Source: a virus (lineage: Duplodnaviria > Caudoviricetes). Taken from it: DNA of 39,958 nucleotides. Position 1 is the first letter of the stretch. Each line of letters begins with the position of its first letter. The DNA lies in the IMG/VR virus record IMGVR_UViG_3300017778_001652, positions 1 through 39,958 of that record; one strand, written 5' to 3'. Made by a program: the position numbers and the translations under genes. Positions 2,451 through 25,211 of the stretch are shown in pieces. The notes under the pieces were generated by a model. That model saw only the letters and a program-made list of their open reading frames with translations, did no database searches and was not told the DNA's origin.

Positions 2451-3092
2451 ATGGCTACTCGCACCAAGAAAACCCCAGTTGCTGATTTCGTTGAAACCCT
2501 CGGAAACGAGATTGACAGCGAGCGTCAGGCGAAGATCGATGAGTTTGCGGCTCGCACCGCCAAGCTGGACATGTCCAGCCTGAAAGAATTCTTCGTGGCG
2601 GGGATGACGAACGAGCGCACCGCGAAACGCTCGTGGCTGTTCCTTGGCGACCAGCTCATCATGCGCGGCTTCACTTCGAAGGACATTTTCAAGCCTTCGA
2701 AGGAACAGCCAGCGACTGAGGAACTGACCGCCATTCGAACCGCGATCATCGACTACGGGTTCCCGAAAGAAATGTCTGACGGCATCAAGCTTCCGGCTCG
2801 TCAGCGTGTCATCTACGGGCCTGAAATGCGTCAAGCGATCATGTATGCGCTCGACAAGGAAATCCCTGACTTCCTCAAAGCGATCAAGAACGCGATGCGC
2901 TCAGTCGAAGAGCGCGGCCCGAACAGCGGCAACAAATCGATGGCGGAACTGCTGGTCGAAACTTGCGAAGAATGGATCAAGAAAATTCGCAAAGCTGACG
3001 ACAAGAAAATCGACTTCGATTGTGTCGATGTGATCGGCGCGCTGAAAGATGTCATCAACGCTGTCGGCATGGAATCGTCCGACGAAGAATAA
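2451..3092 (+). CDS. Hypothetical protein, first rightward gene (213 aa)
   Basis: Long ORF with a GGAG RBS, visibly C/G-ending codon bias, its own promoter and double terminator. No recognisable motif. Confidence 0.85.
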   Translation: MATRTKKTPVADFVETLGNEIDSERQAKIDEFAARTAKLDMSSLKEFFVAGMTNERTAKRSWLFLGDQLIMRGFTSKDIFKPSKEQPATEELTAIRTAIIDYGFPKEMSDGIKLPARQRVIYGPEMRQAIMYALDKEIPDFLKAIKNAMRSVEERGPNSGNKSMAELLVETCEEWIKKIRKADDKKIDFDCVDVIGALKDVINAVGMESSDEE

Positions 3093-3211: not shown

Positions 3212-3363
3212 CAACCCCGAAACCAGTTTCATGCAGCGGTGTGGAGCGTCAGGCAACTCGGTGCAAAGTTGTCCCGGGACACCGGGGAAACTACAGAACA
3301 ACCCCAGTGAAACCAGTGTTCATGCAGCGGTGTGGAGCGTCAGGCGCAGCGCAAAGTTTTCCC
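3212..3363 (+). repeat. Two-copy imperfect direct repeat (~64 bp) with a 27-bp identical core
   Basis: TTCATGCAGCGGTGTGGAGCGTCAGGC at 3228-3254 and 3319-3345. Flanks CAACCCC..GAAACCAGT and GCAAAGTT are shared. Confidence 0.9.
3268..3290 (+). repeat. Direct repeat copy B (partner at 2334-2356)
   Basis: 21/23 identity to 2334-2356. Confidence 0.85.
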
Positions 3364-3387: not shown

Positions 3388-3789
3388 AAGATACATAATT
3401 TTTGAGAATGTGTATCTTTTTTCGATTTGCCTCATTTTATAGCGAACTTATGGAACATTCAGAACTTGGTGGTTCCCCTTCTAAATCAAGGACTTACCGA
3501 CGTTGACCCCACACGACGTTGCTGGTTACCACTATCTGCGATTATGACTGATTGTGACAATGTTCGGCGGAAGTTCTGCATTGTTCGGTGATTCAAGAAC
3601 ATTACCTTTTAGCAACGAAACGCAAGCAGGTGGCGCAGGCTGCCATTGTTAACCATGAATTACATGTCATTATTTATCATTACTTATTATTATTTGATAA
3701 TGTTCTATTGTTCGGTACCACCCCCACTTTTATAGAGCAACTTTTTGACTTTTCCCAAAAGATACACCTTCTCAAAAATTATGTATCTT
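3388..3789. repeat. 33-bp inverted repeat pair (3388-3420 and 3757-3789)
   Basis: AAGATACATAATTTTTGAGAATGTGTATCTTTT versus AAAAGATACACCTTCTCAAAAATTATGTATCTT: reverse complements with one mismatch. Each arm is itself a dyad, AAGATACA-N15-TGTATCTT. Confidence 0.9.
3484..3496 (+). promoter_or_regulatory. IHF-binding consensus site 1
   Basis: AATCAAGGACTTA fits WATCAANNNNTTR. An identical copy is at 3855. Confidence 0.6.
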
Positions 3790-3854
3790 TTACCTTTTTT
3801 CGTTTTGGGAAGGTCCACTTTTTGTACTTTACGAACAAACGAACATTGCTTATG

Positions 3855-3867
3855 AATCAAGGACTTA
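3855..3867 (+). promoter_or_regulatory. IHF-binding consensus site 2
   Basis: AATCAAGGACTTA fits WATCAANNNNTTR. Confidence 0.6.
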
Positions 3868-3981
3868 CGTGCCCCAACCACCGAACATTACCCCCCTTTT
3901 TTCGAACACCCTCCAGAACATTACCCCTTCCGAACATTACCTTACAACCAGACGCTATGAGATAGCAAGGAACTGTATTAC

Positions 3982-4010
3982 TTGACTTACGATGTGCTAT
4001 GTGTTATACT
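3982..4010 (+). promoter_or_regulatory. Strong sigma70 early promoter P1
   Basis: TTGACT, 17-nt spacer, TGt-TATACT (extended -10). Positions 4000-4020 are identical over 21 bp to 5549-5569. Confidence 0.85.
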
Positions 4011-4015
4011 ATAGT

Positions 4016-4573
4016 CTGTTGAGTGGTAGATCGAGGTAAGTAGTAAGTAGGTAGAACCGAAGAGCACCGCTCAACGCTCTTTAACAATATGCAGGTTCGA
4101 GTCGAAAGACAGATGTGCACCGTGACAGGGTGCACGAGAACCGGACTCGGTGGGTGTCTGATGACCCACCTGACAAGCATCCAAAGCCCGTGAGAACGGG
4201 GGAACTGTTGGTTTGTTGTTTCGGTACTTACCGCTTGATCGTTGGATTATTTTCCACCGATCTTTAAGACGGCTACCGGATGACTCCCGTAGACGCTGAC
4301 TGGTAACGGTCAGATCAACACCCCCTAGTAGTCCAGAGCGATGGCAACGGGGCGAGCTACTCGCCCTCCTGCGATGTGGGAACAAGCTGAGACTAACCCG
4401 CATAGGCCCGTAAGGAAAGACTTACGGCTACGGTGTTGCTGCGTATGTACAGCAACCGAGATCATTGCGTGACTTCCGCCTTTGTTGGTTTTTTGTTTTT
4501 GTTTAACGGTTGCTCCCGGTTAACGCCGGGGGCTATCTACAGTGCATCAATCCCGGTGCTCTGTAATCTAGCC
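4016..4573 (+). ncRNA. Candidate large structured RNA / long leader (~560 nt), family unrecognised
   Basis: No ORF of 60 aa or more on the plus strand, directly after P1. More than a dozen stems, with GNRA tetraloops GAAA (4104), GAGA (4192) and GTAA (4303), G-U wobbles that work on the plus strand, and enclosing helices. Confidence 0.65.
4075..4087 (+). promoter_or_regulatory. boxA antitermination element (rrn-type)
   Basis: CGCTCTTTAACAA matches the rrn boxA GCTCTTTAACA. It lies immediately 3' of the hairpin 4018-4027/4066-4075 and about 60 nt after the predicted transcription start. Confidence 0.75.
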
Positions 4574-4589
4574 AAACCAAGGAATGAAG

Positions 4590-4784
4590 ATGAAAACTGA
4601 AAACGTAATTGAGAACTTTACTGCTGCGATGCAGCGTATCCGTAAGGATGCCAACTGCGGTGCGATAAGCGACTGGCAAGTTGCCACCGACTCCGAAGGC
4701 TTTCGGCATATCTTTGTCGAAGACCCATTCACCCGCGAGTGGTTCGAGGCATACAACGAAGGAAGGGAGTTGTGCCATGCGTGA
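4590..4784 (+). CDS. Small hypothetical early protein
   Basis: AAGGA RBS fits ATG 4590 better than 4584. First of a chain of overlapping ORFs. Confidence 0.7.
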   Translation: MKTENVIENFTAAMQRIRKDANCGAISDWQVATDSEGFRHIFVEDPFTREWFEAYNEGRELCHA

Positions 4785-4893: not shown

Positions 4894-5147
4894 GCGGTGA
4901 GCAAGATGGTGTGCAAAAGATGCGCCCGTTGTGCATTGTGTGTTCCGACTTCTTTGCGTCTGCACGACGCCGAGCGGGTTACAAAACGTGCCTTGTCTGC
5001 GGTGAGGAGGCCGCAAAGGATGAGAGGAAGAGTTGGACAGTTATAAGCCTTTATAACAAAGGGGCTTATCAGTTTTGCACAACAAGTGCCGCAGCACAGA
5101 CGCTGCGGGAATCAAACCCAAAAGACCCGCGCTGGGTCAACGACTAA
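4890..5147 (+). CDS. C4 zinc-finger protein (DksA/TraR-like finger)
   Basis: CIVC-x15-CLVC with ARRRAG between the Cys pairs; GGAGG RBS; ATGA overlap. Confidence 0.65.
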   Translation: MSGEQDGVQKMRPLCIVCSDFFASARRRAGYKTCLVCGEEAAKDERKSWTVISLYNKGAYQFCTTSAAAQTLRESNPKDPRWVND

Positions 5148-5530: not shown

Positions 5531-5559
5531 TTGACATTGGTATCATCTTGTGTTATACT
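5531..5559 (+). promoter_or_regulatory. Strong sigma70 early promoter P2
   Basis: TTGACA, 17-nt spacer, TGt-TATACT; paralogous to P1. Confidence 0.9.
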
Positions 5560-5630: not shown

Positions 5631-5648
5631 GTTATAACTGTTTATAAC
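5631..5648. promoter_or_regulatory. 18-bp palindrome, copy 1
   Basis: GTTATAACTGTTTATAAC, one mismatch from copies 2 and 3. Confidence 0.75.
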
Positions 5649-6583: not shown

Positions 6584-6599
6584 TTTGTGTGTGAGTGAG

Positions 6600-6654
6600 C
6601 AAGGCCGAATGGGTCGGCCTTGTTTTGTGTTGTGTTGTTATAAATGTTTATAAC
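6600..6654 (+). promoter_or_regulatory. Hairpin plus 18-bp palindrome, copy 2
   Basis: CAAGGCCGA-atggg-TCGGCCTTG (6600-6622), then GTTATAAATGTTTATAAC (6637-6654). Confidence 0.8.
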
Positions 6655-19092: not shown

Positions 19093-20631
19093 ATGGAAAT
19101 CGTAGAGAACAAAGCGTTGTTGCTAAAGTTGCGTGACCCTGCAAAGGTGACGAACATCATTCCAAAAAGCAAAGCACTTGATGAGCACACGGTGCTGGTG
19201 AACTGGGGGTTAGATGAAGTTCAGGTGTTAAAGAACCTGAAAATAAAAAACGTACCTTCACCTATTTTTCGTAGCTACGATTGGCCCGGACTCTACAAAC
19301 CGTTTGACCATCAGAAAACAACAGCGGCGTTCTTAACGCTGCATAAAAAAGCGTTCTGCCTAAACGAGCAGGGCACTGGCAAGACGGGTAGCGTGATCTG
19401 GGCGGCGGACTACCTGATGAAACAAAGCCGCATACGCCGTGTGCTGGTGATCTGCCCACTGTCGATCATGGACTCAGCATGGCGGTCAGACTTGTTCAAG
19501 TTTGCCATGCACCGATCAGTCGATATTGCATACGGGTCGGCTGATAAGCGGCGAGAAGTAATCAACGGCCCCGCCGAGTTTGTCATCATCAACTACGATG
19601 GACTGTCGATTGTTGAGCAAGATGTCGCCAAGGGAGGGTTTGACCTGATTGTCGTTGACGAGGCAACCCACTATAAGAACGTAAGTACCGAGCGGTGGAA
19701 GACGTTGAACCGACTGATGACCCCGCAAACATGGCTGTGGATGCTGACCGGAACCCCTGCGGCTCAGTCGCCCGTTGATGCTTTTGGATTAGCTAAACTG
19801 ATTAACCCTGAAGGTGTACCTAAGTTCTTTACATCATTCAAAGAAATGGTGATGTACCGGGCGACACAATTCCGCTGGGTTCCTAAAGAGTCGGCCACAA
19901 AAACTGTTCACCGAGTGCTGCAACCTGCGATCAGATTCACCAAAGAAGAGTGCCTTGATCTGCCGGAGATGACCTACGTTGACCGTGCTGTGGCCCTGAC
20001 CAAGCAGCAGGAAAAGTACTACAAGCTGCTCAAGAACCAGATGATTATTGAGGCTGGCGGCGAGGAGATCACCTCCGTTAACGCTGCAGTTAATTTAAGC
20101 AAGTTGTTGCAACTCTCATGCGGTGCCGTCTACTCCGACAACAAGGAAACAATCGAGTTCGACATCAGGAACCGATACGCTGTACTGAAGGAAGTCGTTG
20201 ACGAGGCGGCTAACAAGGTGTTAGTGTTCGTCCCCTTTCGCAACTCGATCCAGATTCTGACCGATAAGCTGCTGGGGGATGGCTACACCGCAGAGATCAT
20301 CAACGGGGATGTGTCGGCCAACAAGCGCACCGAGATTTTCAAACGCTTCCAAGAAACACCGGAACCGCGCATACTAGTCATCCAACCACAAGCTGCGGCA
20401 CACGGGGTGACTCTGACTGCAGCAGACACGATAGTGTGGTGGGGGCCGACAAGCTCTCTCGAAACTTACGCGCAAGCAAACGCACGAGTGCATCGGGCAG
20501 GGCAACATCACCCTACAACAGTTATCAGGCTACAAGGTTCAGCGGCTGAAAGACACGTATACAAGATGTTAGATACAAAAGACGCTGTACACACACAAAT
20601 TGTTGATCTTTACAAACAATTGCTTGACTGA
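19093..20631 (+). CDS. SNF2-family helicase
   Basis: EQGTGKT, VICPLS, VVDEAT, LTGTP, HGVTL and QANARVHRAGQ. Confidence 0.93.
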   Translation: MEIVENKALLLKLRDPAKVTNIIPKSKALDEHTVLVNWGLDEVQVLKNLKIKNVPSPIFRSYDWPGLYKPFDHQKTTAAFLTLHKKAFCLNEQGTGKTGSVIWAADYLMKQSRIRRVLVICPLSIMDSAWRSDLFKFAMHRSVDIAYGSADKRREVINGPAEFVIINYDGLSIVEQDVAKGGFDLIVVDEATHYKNVSTERWKTLNRLMTPQTWLWMLTGTPAAQSPVDAFGLAKLINPEGVPKFFTSFKEMVMYRATQFRWVPKESATKTVHRVLQPAIRFTKEECLDLPEMTYVDRAVALTKQQEKYYKLLKNQMIIEAGGEEITSVNAAVNLSKLLQLSCGAVYSDNKETIEFDIRNRYAVLKEVVDEAANKVLVFVPFRNSIQILTDKLLGDGYTAEIINGDVSANKRTEIFKRFQETPEPRILVIQPQAAAHGVTLTAADTIVWWGPTSSLETYAQANARVHRAGQHHPTTVIRLQGSAAERHVYKMLDTKDAVHTQIVDLYKQLLD

Positions 20632-21338: not shown

Positions 21339-22256
21339 ATGAGCGAACTTTCATTGTTCAAAGGTGGCGTCCCAGCATATCTGGTGGGGCTGGAAGATGA
21401 CACGACCAACAATCTTGCTGGTGGTGAAGTTGGCATGCGTCGTATGTCGATCAAGGGCGGTGTGTTCCGCGAGATGATCGGTAGCAAGGAATATCGCGTT
21501 AGCGAAGAGCGGTCTATCGGCGTGGTCATTATCAAAGCCGCACCGACCAAAAACCGCACGTACTTCTCTGGTCCATACGTTGAGGGTGAAAACGCTTCAC
21601 CTTCTTGCTGGTCGCATGACACCCAAGTGTCGGCTCCAGAAGTCCCGGCAGATCAGCGTCAGTCGGCTAAGTGCATGGACTGCCCCCAGAACATCAAGGG
21701 CTCTGGGCAGGGTGATAGCCGCGCTTGCCGATTCCAGCAGAGGGTTGCCGTGCTGCTTGAGGGCGAGGTTCAGAAGAAGGAAGTGTATCAATTGATCCTT
21801 CCTGCTACTTCTATCTTCGGTGATGGTGAGAAGGGCAAGCTGCCACTGGAAGCATATGCACGTCATCTGCGAGCCCACGGTACTCCGATTGCTGGGGTCA
21901 TTACCGAGATGCGTTTCGATACGGCAAGCCCAACGCCGAAACTGACGTTCAAGCCAGTCCGTGCAGTTACGGAAGATGAGCTTGCAGTTGTTCGTGAGAT
22001 GCGTACTTCCAAGGAAGCGGAAGAGGCTATCAAGTTGACGGTGAACCTTACGCCGAAGAAGCCAGCCGCTGCGTTGTTTGAAGAGGAGCCGGAAGAAAAG
22101 CCAGCACCTAAGAAACTTGCTGCGCCGAAAGTGGAGAAGGCGGCTGTGGTTGAAGAGGAAGAAGACGAACCTGCACCTAAGAAGGTTGCCAGCAAGAAGC
22201 CCGATCCTGCGACTTCTAGTTTGGATTCCCTTGTGACTGGTTGGGATGACGAGTAA
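21339..22256 (+). CDS. Putative ssDNA-binding protein
   Basis: Cys cluster (CWS, CMDCP, AC), Pro/Lys/Glu linker and acidic-aromatic tail WDDE; positioned before the primase-helicase. Confidence 0.65.
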   Translation: MSELSLFKGGVPAYLVGLEDDTTNNLAGGEVGMRRMSIKGGVFREMIGSKEYRVSEERSIGVVIIKAAPTKNRTYFSGPYVEGENASPSCWSHDTQVSAPEVPADQRQSAKCMDCPQNIKGSGQGDSRACRFQQRVAVLLEGEVQKKEVYQLILPATSIFGDGEKGKLPLEAYARHLRAHGTPIAGVITEMRFDTASPTPKLTFKPVRAVTEDELAVVREMRTSKEAEEAIKLTVNLTPKKPAAALFEEEPEEKPAPKKLAAPKVEKAAVVEEEEDEPAPKKVASKKPDPATSSLDSLVTGWDDE

Positions 22257-22267
22257 CTGAGTTTGGG

Positions 22268-22343
22268 GTGATGGGGGTGTAGCTTATTTTGCTACGTATG
22301 TAGCATTTTTGAGTACGTGCCCCCATCGCTTCCTTTCTTTTAC
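22268..22343 (+). terminator. Long hairpin followed by a pyrimidine tract (terminator or processing site)
   Basis: GTGATGGGGG..CCCCCATCGC enclosing TGCTACG-ta-TGTAGCA, then TTCCTTTCTTTT. Confidence 0.55.
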
Positions 22344-22370
22344 TTTCTCCTACCCTGACGCAATGCGGAT

Positions 22371-25211
22371 ATGCAAACACACGATTTCCTTTCCGCAGTT
22401 CTTGGGGGCACTGGGTACATATGCGTTTTTGGGGCGAACCCAGCGAAGAAACGTGTAGTCCAGAAGCTGTACGCCACCATTGAAGCTGCTTGTTCCGCAG
22501 CGGATAACCTATGTCAAGAAGGCTTCGATGCCTACTTCGGGTTAGCCCGATTCCAAACAGATAAAAACAGGAGGGCTGACAATGCGCTAAGTCTTAAATC
22601 GTTCTTTCTTGACATTGACTGCGGCGCACACAAAGACGAAACCGAGGGTTACCCCGGTGGGCAGGGTGATGGGCTTGTTGCACTGCGTCAATTTTGTTTT
22701 ACGGTGGGGCTTCCCAAGCCGACCATCATCAGTTCGGGGCGAGGACTACACATATATTGGGTACTGTCATGCCCAATTCAGGTATCTGAGTGGGTTCCCG
22801 TTGCTGAACGGCTTAAAGATTTGTGTGGGATACATGGACTGGTTGCTGATCCTGCGGTTACTTCTGATACAGCGCGAGTGCTTCGTGTACCGGGGACATC
22901 CAATTTCAAGGATAGCCCACCGAGTTCGGTGCAGGTTATCGGGAAGGTTGCCGAGGAAGTAGAGTTTGCAGCGTTCCGAGATTTGCTCGGCGCTCCGAAA
23001 AGCGTACTGAAAAGCGTACCGTTGTCGGACTTAGAAGACGACATCGCATCTTCAATTCTTGGCAACTACAAGAACATTTTCAAGACCATCGTAATCAAGA
23101 CGGCGGAAGGCCGGGGGTGCAACCAACTCAAGCAGATCATCGAGCAGCAAGACACCATCAGCGAACCAATGTGGCGCGGTGGGCTGTCGATCACGAAGTT
23201 TTGTGAAGACGGAGTAAAGGCCGCTCACCGCATTTCATATAAACATCCGGGGTACAGCGCAGACGACACGGCTAGGAAGTTAGATCAGATAAAGGGACCG
23301 TACACATGCACTACCTTTGATAAGTTGAACCCCGGGGTATGTGCATCATGTATGCACATGAATCATGTGAAGAGCCCAATTGTGCTGGGCCGAGAAGTGC
23401 AGGAAGCCCCCGATGATGGTGAGGTTTACGTTGTTGAAGATGTGCCCGAAGTCGCACCGATTGCAGGGAAGCAAAAGTATGTAATACCGAAATACCCAGT
23501 GCCCTACTTCCGAGGAGTACACGGCGGGGTGTTCAAGCGAACCAAAGACAAGCAAGGTGACCCGCTAGAAATTCCGGTTTACCACAACGACTTATATGTT
23601 ACCCGCCGACTGCACGACCCAGAAGTGGGGGAGGCGATGGTAGTTCGATTGCATTTACCGAAGGATGGTGTACGGGAATTCACCATACCTCTTGCAGCAT
23701 CGTTAGCAAAAGATGAGTTCCGAAAATTTATGGCTATGAATGGTGTAGCCATGATGAAGATGGAAGAACTCATGACATACATAACTACATGGGTGAACAA
23801 ATTGCAGAATGACACTAACGCAGATATTGCTAGGCGGCAGTTCGGGTGGACCGACGAGACTTGCTCCGCATTTGTTATCGGGGACAAGGAAATCCACGCG
23901 AACCGCATCGAGCACAACCCACCATCAAGTTCTACGCTTCGCATGTTTAGCATGTGCAAGTCGAAGGGATCGCTGGAGGAATGGAAGAAAGTTGCTGACT
24001 TCTATAACCGTACTGGCATGGAGATGTATCAGTACGTCATCGCGCTTTCTTTCGGTTCTCCGCTGGTCGCCCACAGTCCAGACGGCTCGGCTTTGTTCCA
24101 CATGTTTAGCAAAGACCCCGGCCTCGGAAAGACAACGGCAATGCGAGTGGGTAGCAGTATCTGGGGACACCCGAATGAGATGATGTGCCAAGAGCGCGAC
24201 ACGGCTAACTCTAAGATGAACCGCGCTGAGATTTTCAAGAACGTCTTTTTAACAATGGACGAACTTACAAACATCTTGCCCAAGGATGCAAGTGATCTTG
24301 TCTATGGATTGACAGGCGGCGCACAACGGAATCGGCTTAGTATGGGCGGCAACGTAGAGCGGTTTCGGGGGGATCAATGGCGGCTTAATGCTTGCAGCAC
24401 GGGTAACACCAGCCTCATTAGCCGAATCATGATGTTCAAGGCTATGCCCAAAGCCGAAACCGTTCGCATAGTAGAAGCCCCAGTTACTGCGTACTCGTTT
24501 GATTCCAAGTCTGAGACTGATGCGTTCGGGCAGTTGCTGTTAAATAACTACGGTCATGCGTGTGTACCGTACATGCAGTTACTCATGCAGCGGGGGGATG
24601 AACCCAAGCAGTTGTTCTTTTCTATGCAAGAAAGAATTGACAAAGCCGCAGGGCTATTGCAGCCGCATAGGTTCTGGTCTGCTCAAGCGGCGTCTGCTCT
24701 GGCTGGGGCAGTGATTGCCAAGAAAGCGGGGCTCATTAACTACGACATCCCCGAGTTGTTCAAGTGGATTACGGGAGTGCTTATCCGTAACAAGACTGGC
24801 TATATTGAGAACAACACCAATGCAGAAGAAATCCTCACCACTTTCCTCGCAGAGAACTACAACAACATTCTTCGTATCAAGAGCACCGAGGATGCACGGT
24901 ACACAAACGATGCCGATATCTGCATCATTCCAGACAATGCACCCCGGTTCCAGTTTGTGGCTCGTTATGAATACGACATCAGGCGGCTGTACTTGATTCC
25001 GAAGGTGTTCCGTGAATGGTGCAGCAAACAACAGATTGCGTACACGGATGTTGTGGATGAGCTAAAGGGTGGGCGCACTAAGGCTCACATGAAGAAGCAA
25101 CGGCTCGGTAAGGGCACACGTATGAACCTGCCACCGATGGATGTGCTTGTCTTGAACTGCTCGGACTTCTTGCTTGACCTAGACGAAGATGGCGCTTCGA
25201 CCCCCCACTAG
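22371..25211 (+). CDS. Primase-helicase (AEP/RepB-like N-terminus plus DUF927 helicase)
   Basis: FLDID, SSGRGLHIYW, RVLRVPGT, Cys cluster, FGW, Walker A GLGKTT, Walker B MDE. Confidence 0.9.
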   Translation: MQTHDFLSAVLGGTGYICVFGANPAKKRVVQKLYATIEAACSAADNLCQEGFDAYFGLARFQTDKNRRADNALSLKSFFLDIDCGAHKDETEGYPGGQGDGLVALRQFCFTVGLPKPTIISSGRGLHIYWVLSCPIQVSEWVPVAERLKDLCGIHGLVADPAVTSDTARVLRVPGTSNFKDSPPSSVQVIGKVAEEVEFAAFRDLLGAPKSVLKSVPLSDLEDDIASSILGNYKNIFKTIVIKTAEGRGCNQLKQIIEQQDTISEPMWRGGLSITKFCEDGVKAAHRISYKHPGYSADDTARKLDQIKGPYTCTTFDKLNPGVCASCMHMNHVKSPIVLGREVQEAPDDGEVYVVEDVPEVAPIAGKQKYVIPKYPVPYFRGVHGGVFKRTKDKQGDPLEIPVYHNDLYVTRRLHDPEVGEAMVVRLHLPKDGVREFTIPLAASLAKDEFRKFMAMNGVAMMKMEELMTYITTWVNKLQNDTNADIARRQFGWTDETCSAFVIGDKEIHANRIEHNPPSSSTLRMFSMCKSKGSLEEWKKVADFYNRTGMEMYQYVIALSFGSPLVAHSPDGSALFHMFSKDPGLGKTTAMRVGSSIWGHPNEMMCQERDTANSKMNRAEIFKNVFLTMDELTNILPKDASDLVYGLTGGAQRNRLSMGGNVERFRGDQWRLNACSTGNTSLISRIMMFKAMPKAETVRIVEAPVTAYSFDSKSETDAFGQLLLNNYGHACVPYMQLLMQRGDEPKQLFFSMQERIDKAAGLLQPHRFWSAQAASALAGAVIAKKAGLINYDIPELFKWITGVLIRNKTGYIENNTNAEEILTTFLAENYNNILRIKSTEDARYTNDADICIIPDNAPRFQFVARYEYDIRRLYLIPKVFREWCSKQQIAYTDVVDELKGGRTKAHMKKQRLGKGTRMNLPPMDVLVLNCSDFLLDLDEDGASTPH

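Follow-up and report, generated by a model that had tools for sequence, protein, structure and literature searches.

The window analysed here is a complete virus record of 39,958 nt, and all coordinates refer to this record. Scans of its proteins against PHROGs and Pfam identify a family-A DNA polymerase, helicases and a sigma-like protein, as well as an AAA ATPase paired with a DUF2201 vWA protein, and a DarB-like protein of 2,174 aa. A gene scan of the whole 39,958 nt found no tRNA or tmRNA gene, a search of cultured phages found no close relative, and the best-matching sequencing runs are freshwater metagenomes. No RNA dataset was listed among the runs, a result without bearing on expression. 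Leftward terminase genes are followed by a gene at 2451-3092, two terminators and an AT-rich spacer, all before the promoter P1, the start site of which we infer to be at about 4014-4018. The leader that follows (4016-4573) and the features around it are:

3982..4010, plus strand: promoter P1, sigma-70 type, TTGACT-17-TG-TATACT (10/12 consensus matches, extended -10)
4018..4075, plus strand: 5′ hairpin P0, a 10-bp stem (4018-4027/4066-4075; pair probabilities 0.93-0.97) with a variable interior, in the place of the rrn boxB
4076..4086, plus strand: boxA, GCTCTTTAACA, a perfect match to GYTCTTTAANA
4090..4142, plus strand: domain 1, with closing helix 4094-4098/4138-4142 and a GTGAC-loop hairpin
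4143..4334, plus strand: central domain, with a GNRA hairpin, a TTCGGTA/TACCGGA arm and a CTGACTG-GTAA-CGGTCAG hairpin (71% identity to the homologue L192 over 4171-4339, with compensatory pairs)
4338..4468, plus strand: variable hairpin cluster, containing the GGAAAGAC-loop hairpin (4406-4428)
4481..4505, plus strand: U-rich linker of variable length, in which indels and substitutions cluster; absent from L192
4513..4573, plus strand: 3′ domain, with hairpin X (4513-4532) and terminal hairpin Y (4531-4573)
4579-4583, plus strand: Shine-Dalgarno word AAGGA
4579..4784 (including the Shine-Dalgarno word), plus strand: first early gene, 64 aa, ATG at 4590, of no family (protein cluster of 8 members)
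5531..5559, plus strand: promoter P2 (11/12 consensus matches)
6597..6625, plus strand: terminator-like hairpin (stem of 12 pairs, tail rich in U and G) that separates the DUF3150-like gene from the operon running from the ATPase and vWA genes to the polymerase

P1 and P2 are identical over 21 nt around the -10 element, and a motif scan of the genome gave no boxA match nearby behind P2. No promoter-like site with at least 10 consensus matches lies between P2 and 18881, the next such site, about 13 kb on. The hairpin at 6597-6625, in the tail of which the U-run at 6625 is not clean, is a candidate antitermination target.

Several repeats lie around this region. A 33-nt inverted repeat (3388-3420/3757-3789, 97% complementary) flanks 336 nt of the AT-rich spacer, has GAACATTAC-type repeats near it and looks like a replication origin or an invertible segment. 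A 27-nt repeat with a ATGCAGCGGTG core is found at 3228-3254, 3319-3345 and 2279-2305, adjoining a GTTGTCCCGG inverted motif, and similar GCAGCGGCG repeats occupy the equivalent place in L001 and L002. The palindrome GTTATAA-N3-TTTATAAC, a candidate repressor operator, has three copies (5040-5057, 5631-5648 and 6637-6654), two of them shortly 5′ of ribosome-binding sites.

A preliminary description of this DNA had claimed a multi-domain structured RNA of about 560 nt without a plausible plus-strand gene, and both parts of the claim are borne out. The leader has a folding energy of -210.4 kcal/mol (z -4.37), equalled by none of 100 shuffles; the minus strand gives a z of -3.74. The genome was divided into 142 non-overlapping windows of 280 nt, each compared with 18 shuffles; 4296-4575 (z -3.99) shares the first rank and 4016-4295 (z -2.43) comes 12th, against a median z of -0.34. 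Two other windows, 22216-22495 (z -3.99) and 21376-21655 (z -3.5), also fold well, the former covering the intergenic gap at 22256-22371 upstream of the primase-helicase. Within 4016-4600, ATG 4590 is the sole start codon with a Shine-Dalgarno-like word. The helices listed earlier are present at the places given for them, as are the three GNRA loops (GAAA 4104-4107, GAGA 4192-4195 and GTAA 4303-4306); the 10-bp 5′ hairpin and the perfect boxA had been overlooked. A search of the window against Rfam gave no hit at the gathering score and none within 4016-4573 at E up to 5, and L192 gave no match at E up to 1, so that the RNA remains uncatalogued. No description of this RNA, or of large phage leaders headed by boxA, was found in the literature searched, in which subscription papers are thinly covered. 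Four motif spellings and the contig identifier likewise gave no hits in six supplementary files of a catalogue of 10,006 candidate viral RNAs (Fremin 2023, PMC10690425).

The boxA at 4076-4086 matches the consensus GYTCTTTAANA (PMC5725501) at every position; this is the E. coli-type consensus and may not equal the rrn boxA of the host. The plus strand of the genome has no other perfect copy and the minus strand has one, at 19226; the motif at 4076-4086 sits 65 nt behind P1 in the order hairpin, then boxA, as in rrn. Four phages of the same group, the window, L098, L112 and L135, have a promoter, a hairpin and a perfect boxA followed by an ORF-poor stretch of about 490-680 nt, which indicates that in this group boxA accompanies long leaders. 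The homologues L192 and L205 are headed by a boxA with one mismatch (A replaces the first G), followed by 390-420 nt. The leaders of L098, L112 and L135 were considered as homologues of the window RNA and rejected, as they have nothing but boxA in common with it; they form a second type of long boxA leader, with GTAGGGTATG-like motifs and, in L098 and L135, GTGAATA-like motifs (by eye). A scan of viral sequences for a -10 element plus boxA returned 111 loci, mostly chance matches on inspection. Perfect boxA copies also lie shortly behind a promoter, with shorter leaders, in L104, L107, L136, L140, L134 and L148. Judged from such motif matches, boxA-headed phage transcripts appear to be widespread. 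Promoter plus boxA was found in none of 33 clusters of ATPase relatives, several loci of which end short upstream. The two closest ATPase relatives, L001 and L002, have the same gene order as the window and short leaders in place of the long one.

The homologue L192 came from a metagenome pattern scan that returned three loci, the others being the record of the window itself (L193, excluded from counts) and a chance match, L194, which was rejected as a pattern match without similarity. L192 is ∼70% identical to the window from boxA through the Shine-Dalgarno word, with all domains in the same order. Over 68 alignable pairs, 55 are the same, nine compensatory, three changed on one side and one broken, a count that leans in favour of the helices since these were picked with both sequences in view. 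The compensatory pairs are spread over seven helices, and such changes occur in helices that the preliminary description had named with only the window in view: CTGACTG, CCGTAAG, GTGCACC and, in the last hairpin, the upper stem. In L192 unrelated paired sequence takes the place of five further stems (by eye), and nothing corresponds to the GCGATG/CATTGC helix, the GGGCGAG and GAAA hairpins or the U-rich linker. The folding z of the L192 leader is modest (-2.17). On the reverse strand of L192, at ∼899-954 and directly 3′ of the first gene, lies a type I hammerhead-like sequence (CTGATGA, stem II, GAAA, stem III, TC); an additional base precedes stem II, and Rfam gives no match at E up to 1.

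A more distant member, L205, was reached through the downstream protein of L192. Its leader has the one-mismatch boxA and three of the hairpins (GTGAC-loop, GGAAAGAC and last), its similarity to the window residing mainly in the 3′ modules (nhmmer E 2e-11; 5′ part E 0.37), and it folds no better than shuffles (z -0.35). The L205 record (48% complete) has a terminase without a tblastx match to the window and shows no match to the ATPase or polymerase of the window, and stretches of 6 kb and 19 kb lack any tblastx hit to it. The cassette is hence shared across phage lineages and precedes unrelated genes. L207-L210 are members of the same group as the window and carry the GGAAAGAC hairpin and short shared motifs in the spacer 3′ of the first gene, far from boxA, and the L207 module folds like shuffles (z 0.05). 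The cassette is thus absent from the closest relatives and present ahead of an unrelated gene in another lineage, and as far as can be judged from these loci it behaves as a portable unit running from boxA to the Shine-Dalgarno word, without a 3′ terminator. In several lineages the first gene encodes a member of a 140-aa phage protein family (L205 3929-4399, L206-L210 and P0001) that has an invariant KGQKAFY motif and matches nothing in Pfam or PHROGs.

The family as found counts two complete members, a distant third and some partial modules. No homologue was found among cultured phages with the window and L192 as queries, in species genomes by pattern or by P0001 alignment, with the DUF3150-like protein as query, or by nhmmer or blastn over 80 ATPase loci and the 111 promoter-boxA loci. 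Patterns run on viral contigs gave 0 hits, 10 hits of which none was homologous, and 12 hits with a single homologue, L220, at the same place as L205. A covariance model, R1, built from two training sequences, scored only these among 96 sources, and with filters off its best E over nine loci was 0.18. A genome index returned a sole above-chance match, a 28-nt exact match to 4103-4130 in two small bacterial assemblies (B1 and B2), which could be a CRISPR spacer naming the host.

Covariation, which the preliminary description had named as a check, is thus present as compensatory changes in L192 and in the terminal hairpin, in a family too small for R-scape-level statistics. Hairpin Y has 15 pairs with two internal loops, ends 5 nt 5′ of the Shine-Dalgarno word, and keeps 15/15 pairs over the window, L192 and L205, five of them changed on both sides. 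One of 500 shuffles scored as high, and slid controls were 18-43% paired. The proposed fourth domain does consist of two hairpins ending just before the ribosome-binding site, but its GGTTG/TAGCC closure has a probability of 0.0; closure is by GGCTA 4531-4535 with TAGCC 4569-4573 (probability about 0.6), kept in all three sequences with one compensatory change. Similarly, the helices of the third domain are present in the window, but its GCGATG/CATTGC closure and its GGGCGAG hairpin are among the elements absent from L192. The TGTTG/CAACA closure of the second domain is found in the sequence, but has a probability of 0.05 in the window alone and is invariant in L192, and hence uninformative.

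The GTGAC loop of domain 1 is common to the window, L192 and L205 while its stems are rewritten, and the GGAAAGAC-loop hairpin is kept with 7/7 pairs in L192 (one compensatory) and 5/7 in L205, and is found in L207-L210 as well. In the model the central domain is likely to be closed by GGACT/AGTCC; its topology is partly ambiguous and not settled, and its conserved single strands are TGACAAGCAT, CCGTAG and CCCTAGTAG. An invariant TGCA (4090-4093) may pair weakly with 4370-4373 (probability about 0.1). Four other readings of the leader were rejected. The U-rich linker is not a terminator, having no preceding hairpin, being missing in L192 and not being among the terminator-like sites; a TAGTC/GACTA pseudoknot loses its pairing in L192; both words of a CCGG kissing loop lie within helices, one of which shows covariation; and the CTGATGA word of a box C/D (or hammerhead) reading is lost in L192.

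In close relatives the leader is far more conserved than its flanks. One contig of run X12 differs at 50 of 263 positions in 3700-3962 and at 6 of 370 in 3963-4332 (Fisher p 1e-14), and one low-depth contig of run X17 differs at 0 of 82 positions in 4499-4580 and at 18 of 165 in the gene behind, 4581-4745 (Fisher p 0.001). Relatives provided 21 substitution rows, 13 from near relatives and eight from a more distant contig (X5 record 9). When mapped on our own structure model (268 of 558 nt paired), nine of the 13 are unpaired, two change A-U to G-U and two break a helix-end pair; the A-U to G-U changes favour function on the plus strand, as had been argued earlier. The eight substitutions of the distant contig, placed by hand, leave the stem 4538-4542/4561-4565 of hairpin Y untouched, the stem above it being rewritten. 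Indels fall in the P0 loop, in the loop at 4246 and in the U-rich linker, and variation in P0 is confined to its loop region (substitutions at 4038 and 4039; 9-nt insertions at 4048-4051). These observations, together with the folding, support the view that the leader is a large, uncatalogued, plus-strand structured phage RNA under selection. A change at 4477 in two relatives would perfect an 8-bp pairing of 4474-4481 with 4049-4056 in the P0 interior, enclosing boxA; this was noticed by eye and may be chance. A loose end in run X5 carries a hairpin like that of the L098, L112 and L135 leaders immediately 5′ of a match to 4112-4176 of the window, a hint that leaders may be mosaic.

We propose that the cassette, consisting of the 5′ hairpin, boxA, ∼480 nt of structured RNA and the terminal hairpin, may be a cis-acting processivity or antitermination element for the early operon, a reading drawn from sequence comparison to which we assign a probability of roughly 0.45. 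Host sigma-70 polymerase would initiate at P1, and boxA, by analogy with rrn, would bind NusB-S10 and nucleate an rRNA-type Nus/SuhB complex, which would shield the long untranslated RNA from Rho and aid its folding. The folded core, tethered to the polymerase, might then replace the N-type protein that is apparently missing from the phage. No N, RT or RNA-binding family was identified among 32 proteins compared with PHROGs and 30 compared with Pfam; N-type proteins are small, divergent and easily overlooked in family scans. Transcripts from P1 would thereby continue beyond the hairpin at 6597-6625 to cover the genes for the ATPase, the vWA protein and the DNA polymerase, whereas those from P2 would mostly stop there, and RNase III may cut hairpin Y, a candidate RNase III-type site, to free the message of the first gene.

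A role in cis is favoured because the cassette has no terminator and a ribosome-binding site always adjoins it, because the 13 kb beyond P2 contain no strong promoter-like site, and because a terminator-like hairpin before the ATPase is enriched in phages with promoter and boxA. This hairpin is present in two of three such phages (two of four with L207) and in one of 31 others, an association (Fisher p about 0.016, and 0.03 with L207, calculated by hand) that is post hoc and ignores relatedness; two of the 33 clusters were omitted for short flanks, and loci incomplete upstream may have a boxA in the missing part. The L098 phage has boxA and no such hairpin before its ATPase, and we regard the correlation as weak. 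In rrn, boxA is required and is by itself enough to form the complex (PMC10250234), which implies that antitermination may do without the 480-nt fold. The role of boxA might instead be confined to ensuring that a long RNA is produced, as it does for rRNA and CRISPR arrays. The altered first base of boxA in L192 and L205, the placement of the L207-L210 modules and the shuffle-like folding of the L205 and L207 leaders also count against the cis reading.

Much of the same evidence can be read in terms of an RNA acting in trans, made in the style of a miniature rRNA: boxA and Nus would ensure synthesis and folding, an RNase III-type cut at hairpin Y would release the core, and the core would act in the first minutes of infection as a decoy, a counter-defence sponge or a self-assembling ornate RNA. 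The invariant loops and single strands (TGACAAGCAT, CCCTAGTAG, GTGAC, GGAAAGAC and AATYCC) suggest tertiary contacts or protein binding, and the element is accessory and moves among lineages like a moron. Its size is like that of ROOL and OLE (PMC12286853), and boxA serves long non-coding transcripts elsewhere (PMC10250234, 10.64898/2026.07.09.737519). We nevertheless consider a trans-acting product, the main alternative, less likely than a role in cis, in view of the missing terminator and the adjoining ribosome-binding site, the genome free of tRNA genes, a search that found no partner or target, and the gain or loss of entire sub-domains among homologues. Of the guesses made earlier for an undescribed large phage RNA, antitermination gains the support of boxA; the decoy and the precursor of small RNAs have no positive evidence, the decoy being still conceivable. 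A further possibility is that there is no single large fold, boxA being joined by independent small modules (the GGAAAGAC hairpin, the terminal processing hairpin and stabilising stems) that would protect or process the message. Such a patchwork would account for L205, which shares mainly the 3′ modules, for L207-L210, in which the GGAAAGAC hairpin and short motifs lie elsewhere in the locus, and for long-range helices that are invariant or of low probability; it is improbable in light of the domain order kept in L192 from boxA to the Shine-Dalgarno word, the compensatory pairs in seven helices and the conservation across the whole leader in close relatives.

Two further explanations were considered. 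Mobility, conserved junctions, the CTGATGA word and the TAGTC/GAGACTA pair, which resemble motifs of hammerhead and group I cores, as well as the hammerhead-like sequence 3′ of the gene in L192, would suit a catalytic or selfish RNA such as a new ribozyme or an intron remnant. The loss of CTGATGA and of the TAGTC/GACTA pairing in L192, the absence of Rfam ribozyme or intron matches in window and L192, and a set of scanned proteins without an RT make this very improbable, and membership of the hammerhead or group I classes finds no support in core words that L192 does not conserve. Still less credible is a protein gene on the minus strand (4071-4403, 110 aa) as the cause of the conservation. 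The overlapping L192 frame is open for 111 codons, three of the five substitutions seen among close relatives are silent, and the deletion at 4246, of 3 nt, preserves the frame. However, substitutions between window and L192 are spread evenly over codon positions (10/46, 11/45 and 10/45), comparable open frames occur in 7.7% of shuffles, and conservation reaches 4573, beyond the frame. The frame also has no visible upstream Shine-Dalgarno word, its L192 counterpart has no methionine, it has no PHROG match, and the exact protein is missing from the protein collection searched.

Taken more broadly, the cassette may, tentatively, exemplify portable phage RNAs that are transcribed like rRNA, in which boxA would capture Nus/SuhB, the folded core would either replace an N-type antiterminator or be excised as an immediate-early RNA effector, and the whole would move as a boxA-to-ribosome-binding-site unit. 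The description of a new system was overstated, as boxA/Nus antitermination is known from rRNA, CRISPR arrays and lambdoid phages with N, a dedicated protein partner was not found and parts of the domain architecture are unconserved. Large ornate phage RNAs are also known, with no assigned function, and the leader joins both kinds of element. If the effect is in cis, this would be a new RNA-based antiterminator, and a core in place of N would provide an all-RNA, Nus-assisted route past intrinsic terminators; if it is in trans, a large phage RNA would gain a function. The promoter, boxA, 560-nt RNA and downstream hairpin can be transferred to a reporter without culturing the phage.

The early leader of phage T7 has a host promoter, a boxA-like signal and the RNase III site R0.3, and the present leader likewise combines a host promoter and boxA with a long hairpin, interrupted by internal loops, shortly 5′ of the first ribosome-binding site. 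The geometry of hairpin Y is T7-like and conserved, cleavage being a prediction; to our knowledge, a conserved multi-domain RNA of this size is not known from the T7 leader. The rrn leader, with its NusA/B/E/G-SuhB-S4 complex (PMC10250234, PMC8632103, PMC5725501), resembles the window in its strong sigma-70 promoter, hairpin, perfect boxA and long structured non-coding RNA. In rrn operons boxB, boxA and boxC follow in that order just past the promoter, and the Nus/SuhB complex resists Rho and is proposed to act as a folding chaperone (PMC10250234, PMC8632103). In contrast, the phage boxA precedes ∼480 nt of uncatalogued RNA joined to phage mRNA rather than rRNA, and neither boxC nor a leader-trailer helix was noticed by eye in the phage leader. 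Lambda nut with N, HK022 put and B. subtilis EAR are promoter-proximal RNA signals for read-through (PMC8632103), and the phage leader has a predicted cis role at the head of the early genes. Compared with lambda nut, the order is hairpin-boxA rather than boxA-boxB and no N family was found among the proteins scanned; a GAAA tetraloop hairpin does lie 3′ of boxA in the window, and is absent from L192. HK022 put is an N-independent double hairpin of ∼65 nt (PMC8632103); the phage RNA is seven to eight times longer and has boxA, and its size, its architecture and the absence of an Rfam hit place it outside the put class. CRISPR leaders (10.64898/2026.07.09.737519) also have boxA ahead of a long untranslated transcript, where it holds off Rho, whereas the present leader has no repeats or spacers, is phage-borne and is followed by genes. 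ROOL, GOLLD and OLE are similar in size, multi-domain fold, phage origin and accessory distribution, and ROOL and GOLLD often lie near tRNA islands (PMC12286853); the present RNA differs from them in being an operon leader with boxA, without an Rfam match or neighbouring tRNAs. On this comparison the leader would function as a hybrid of an rrn leader and put or EAR, while in size it resembles an ornate phage RNA.
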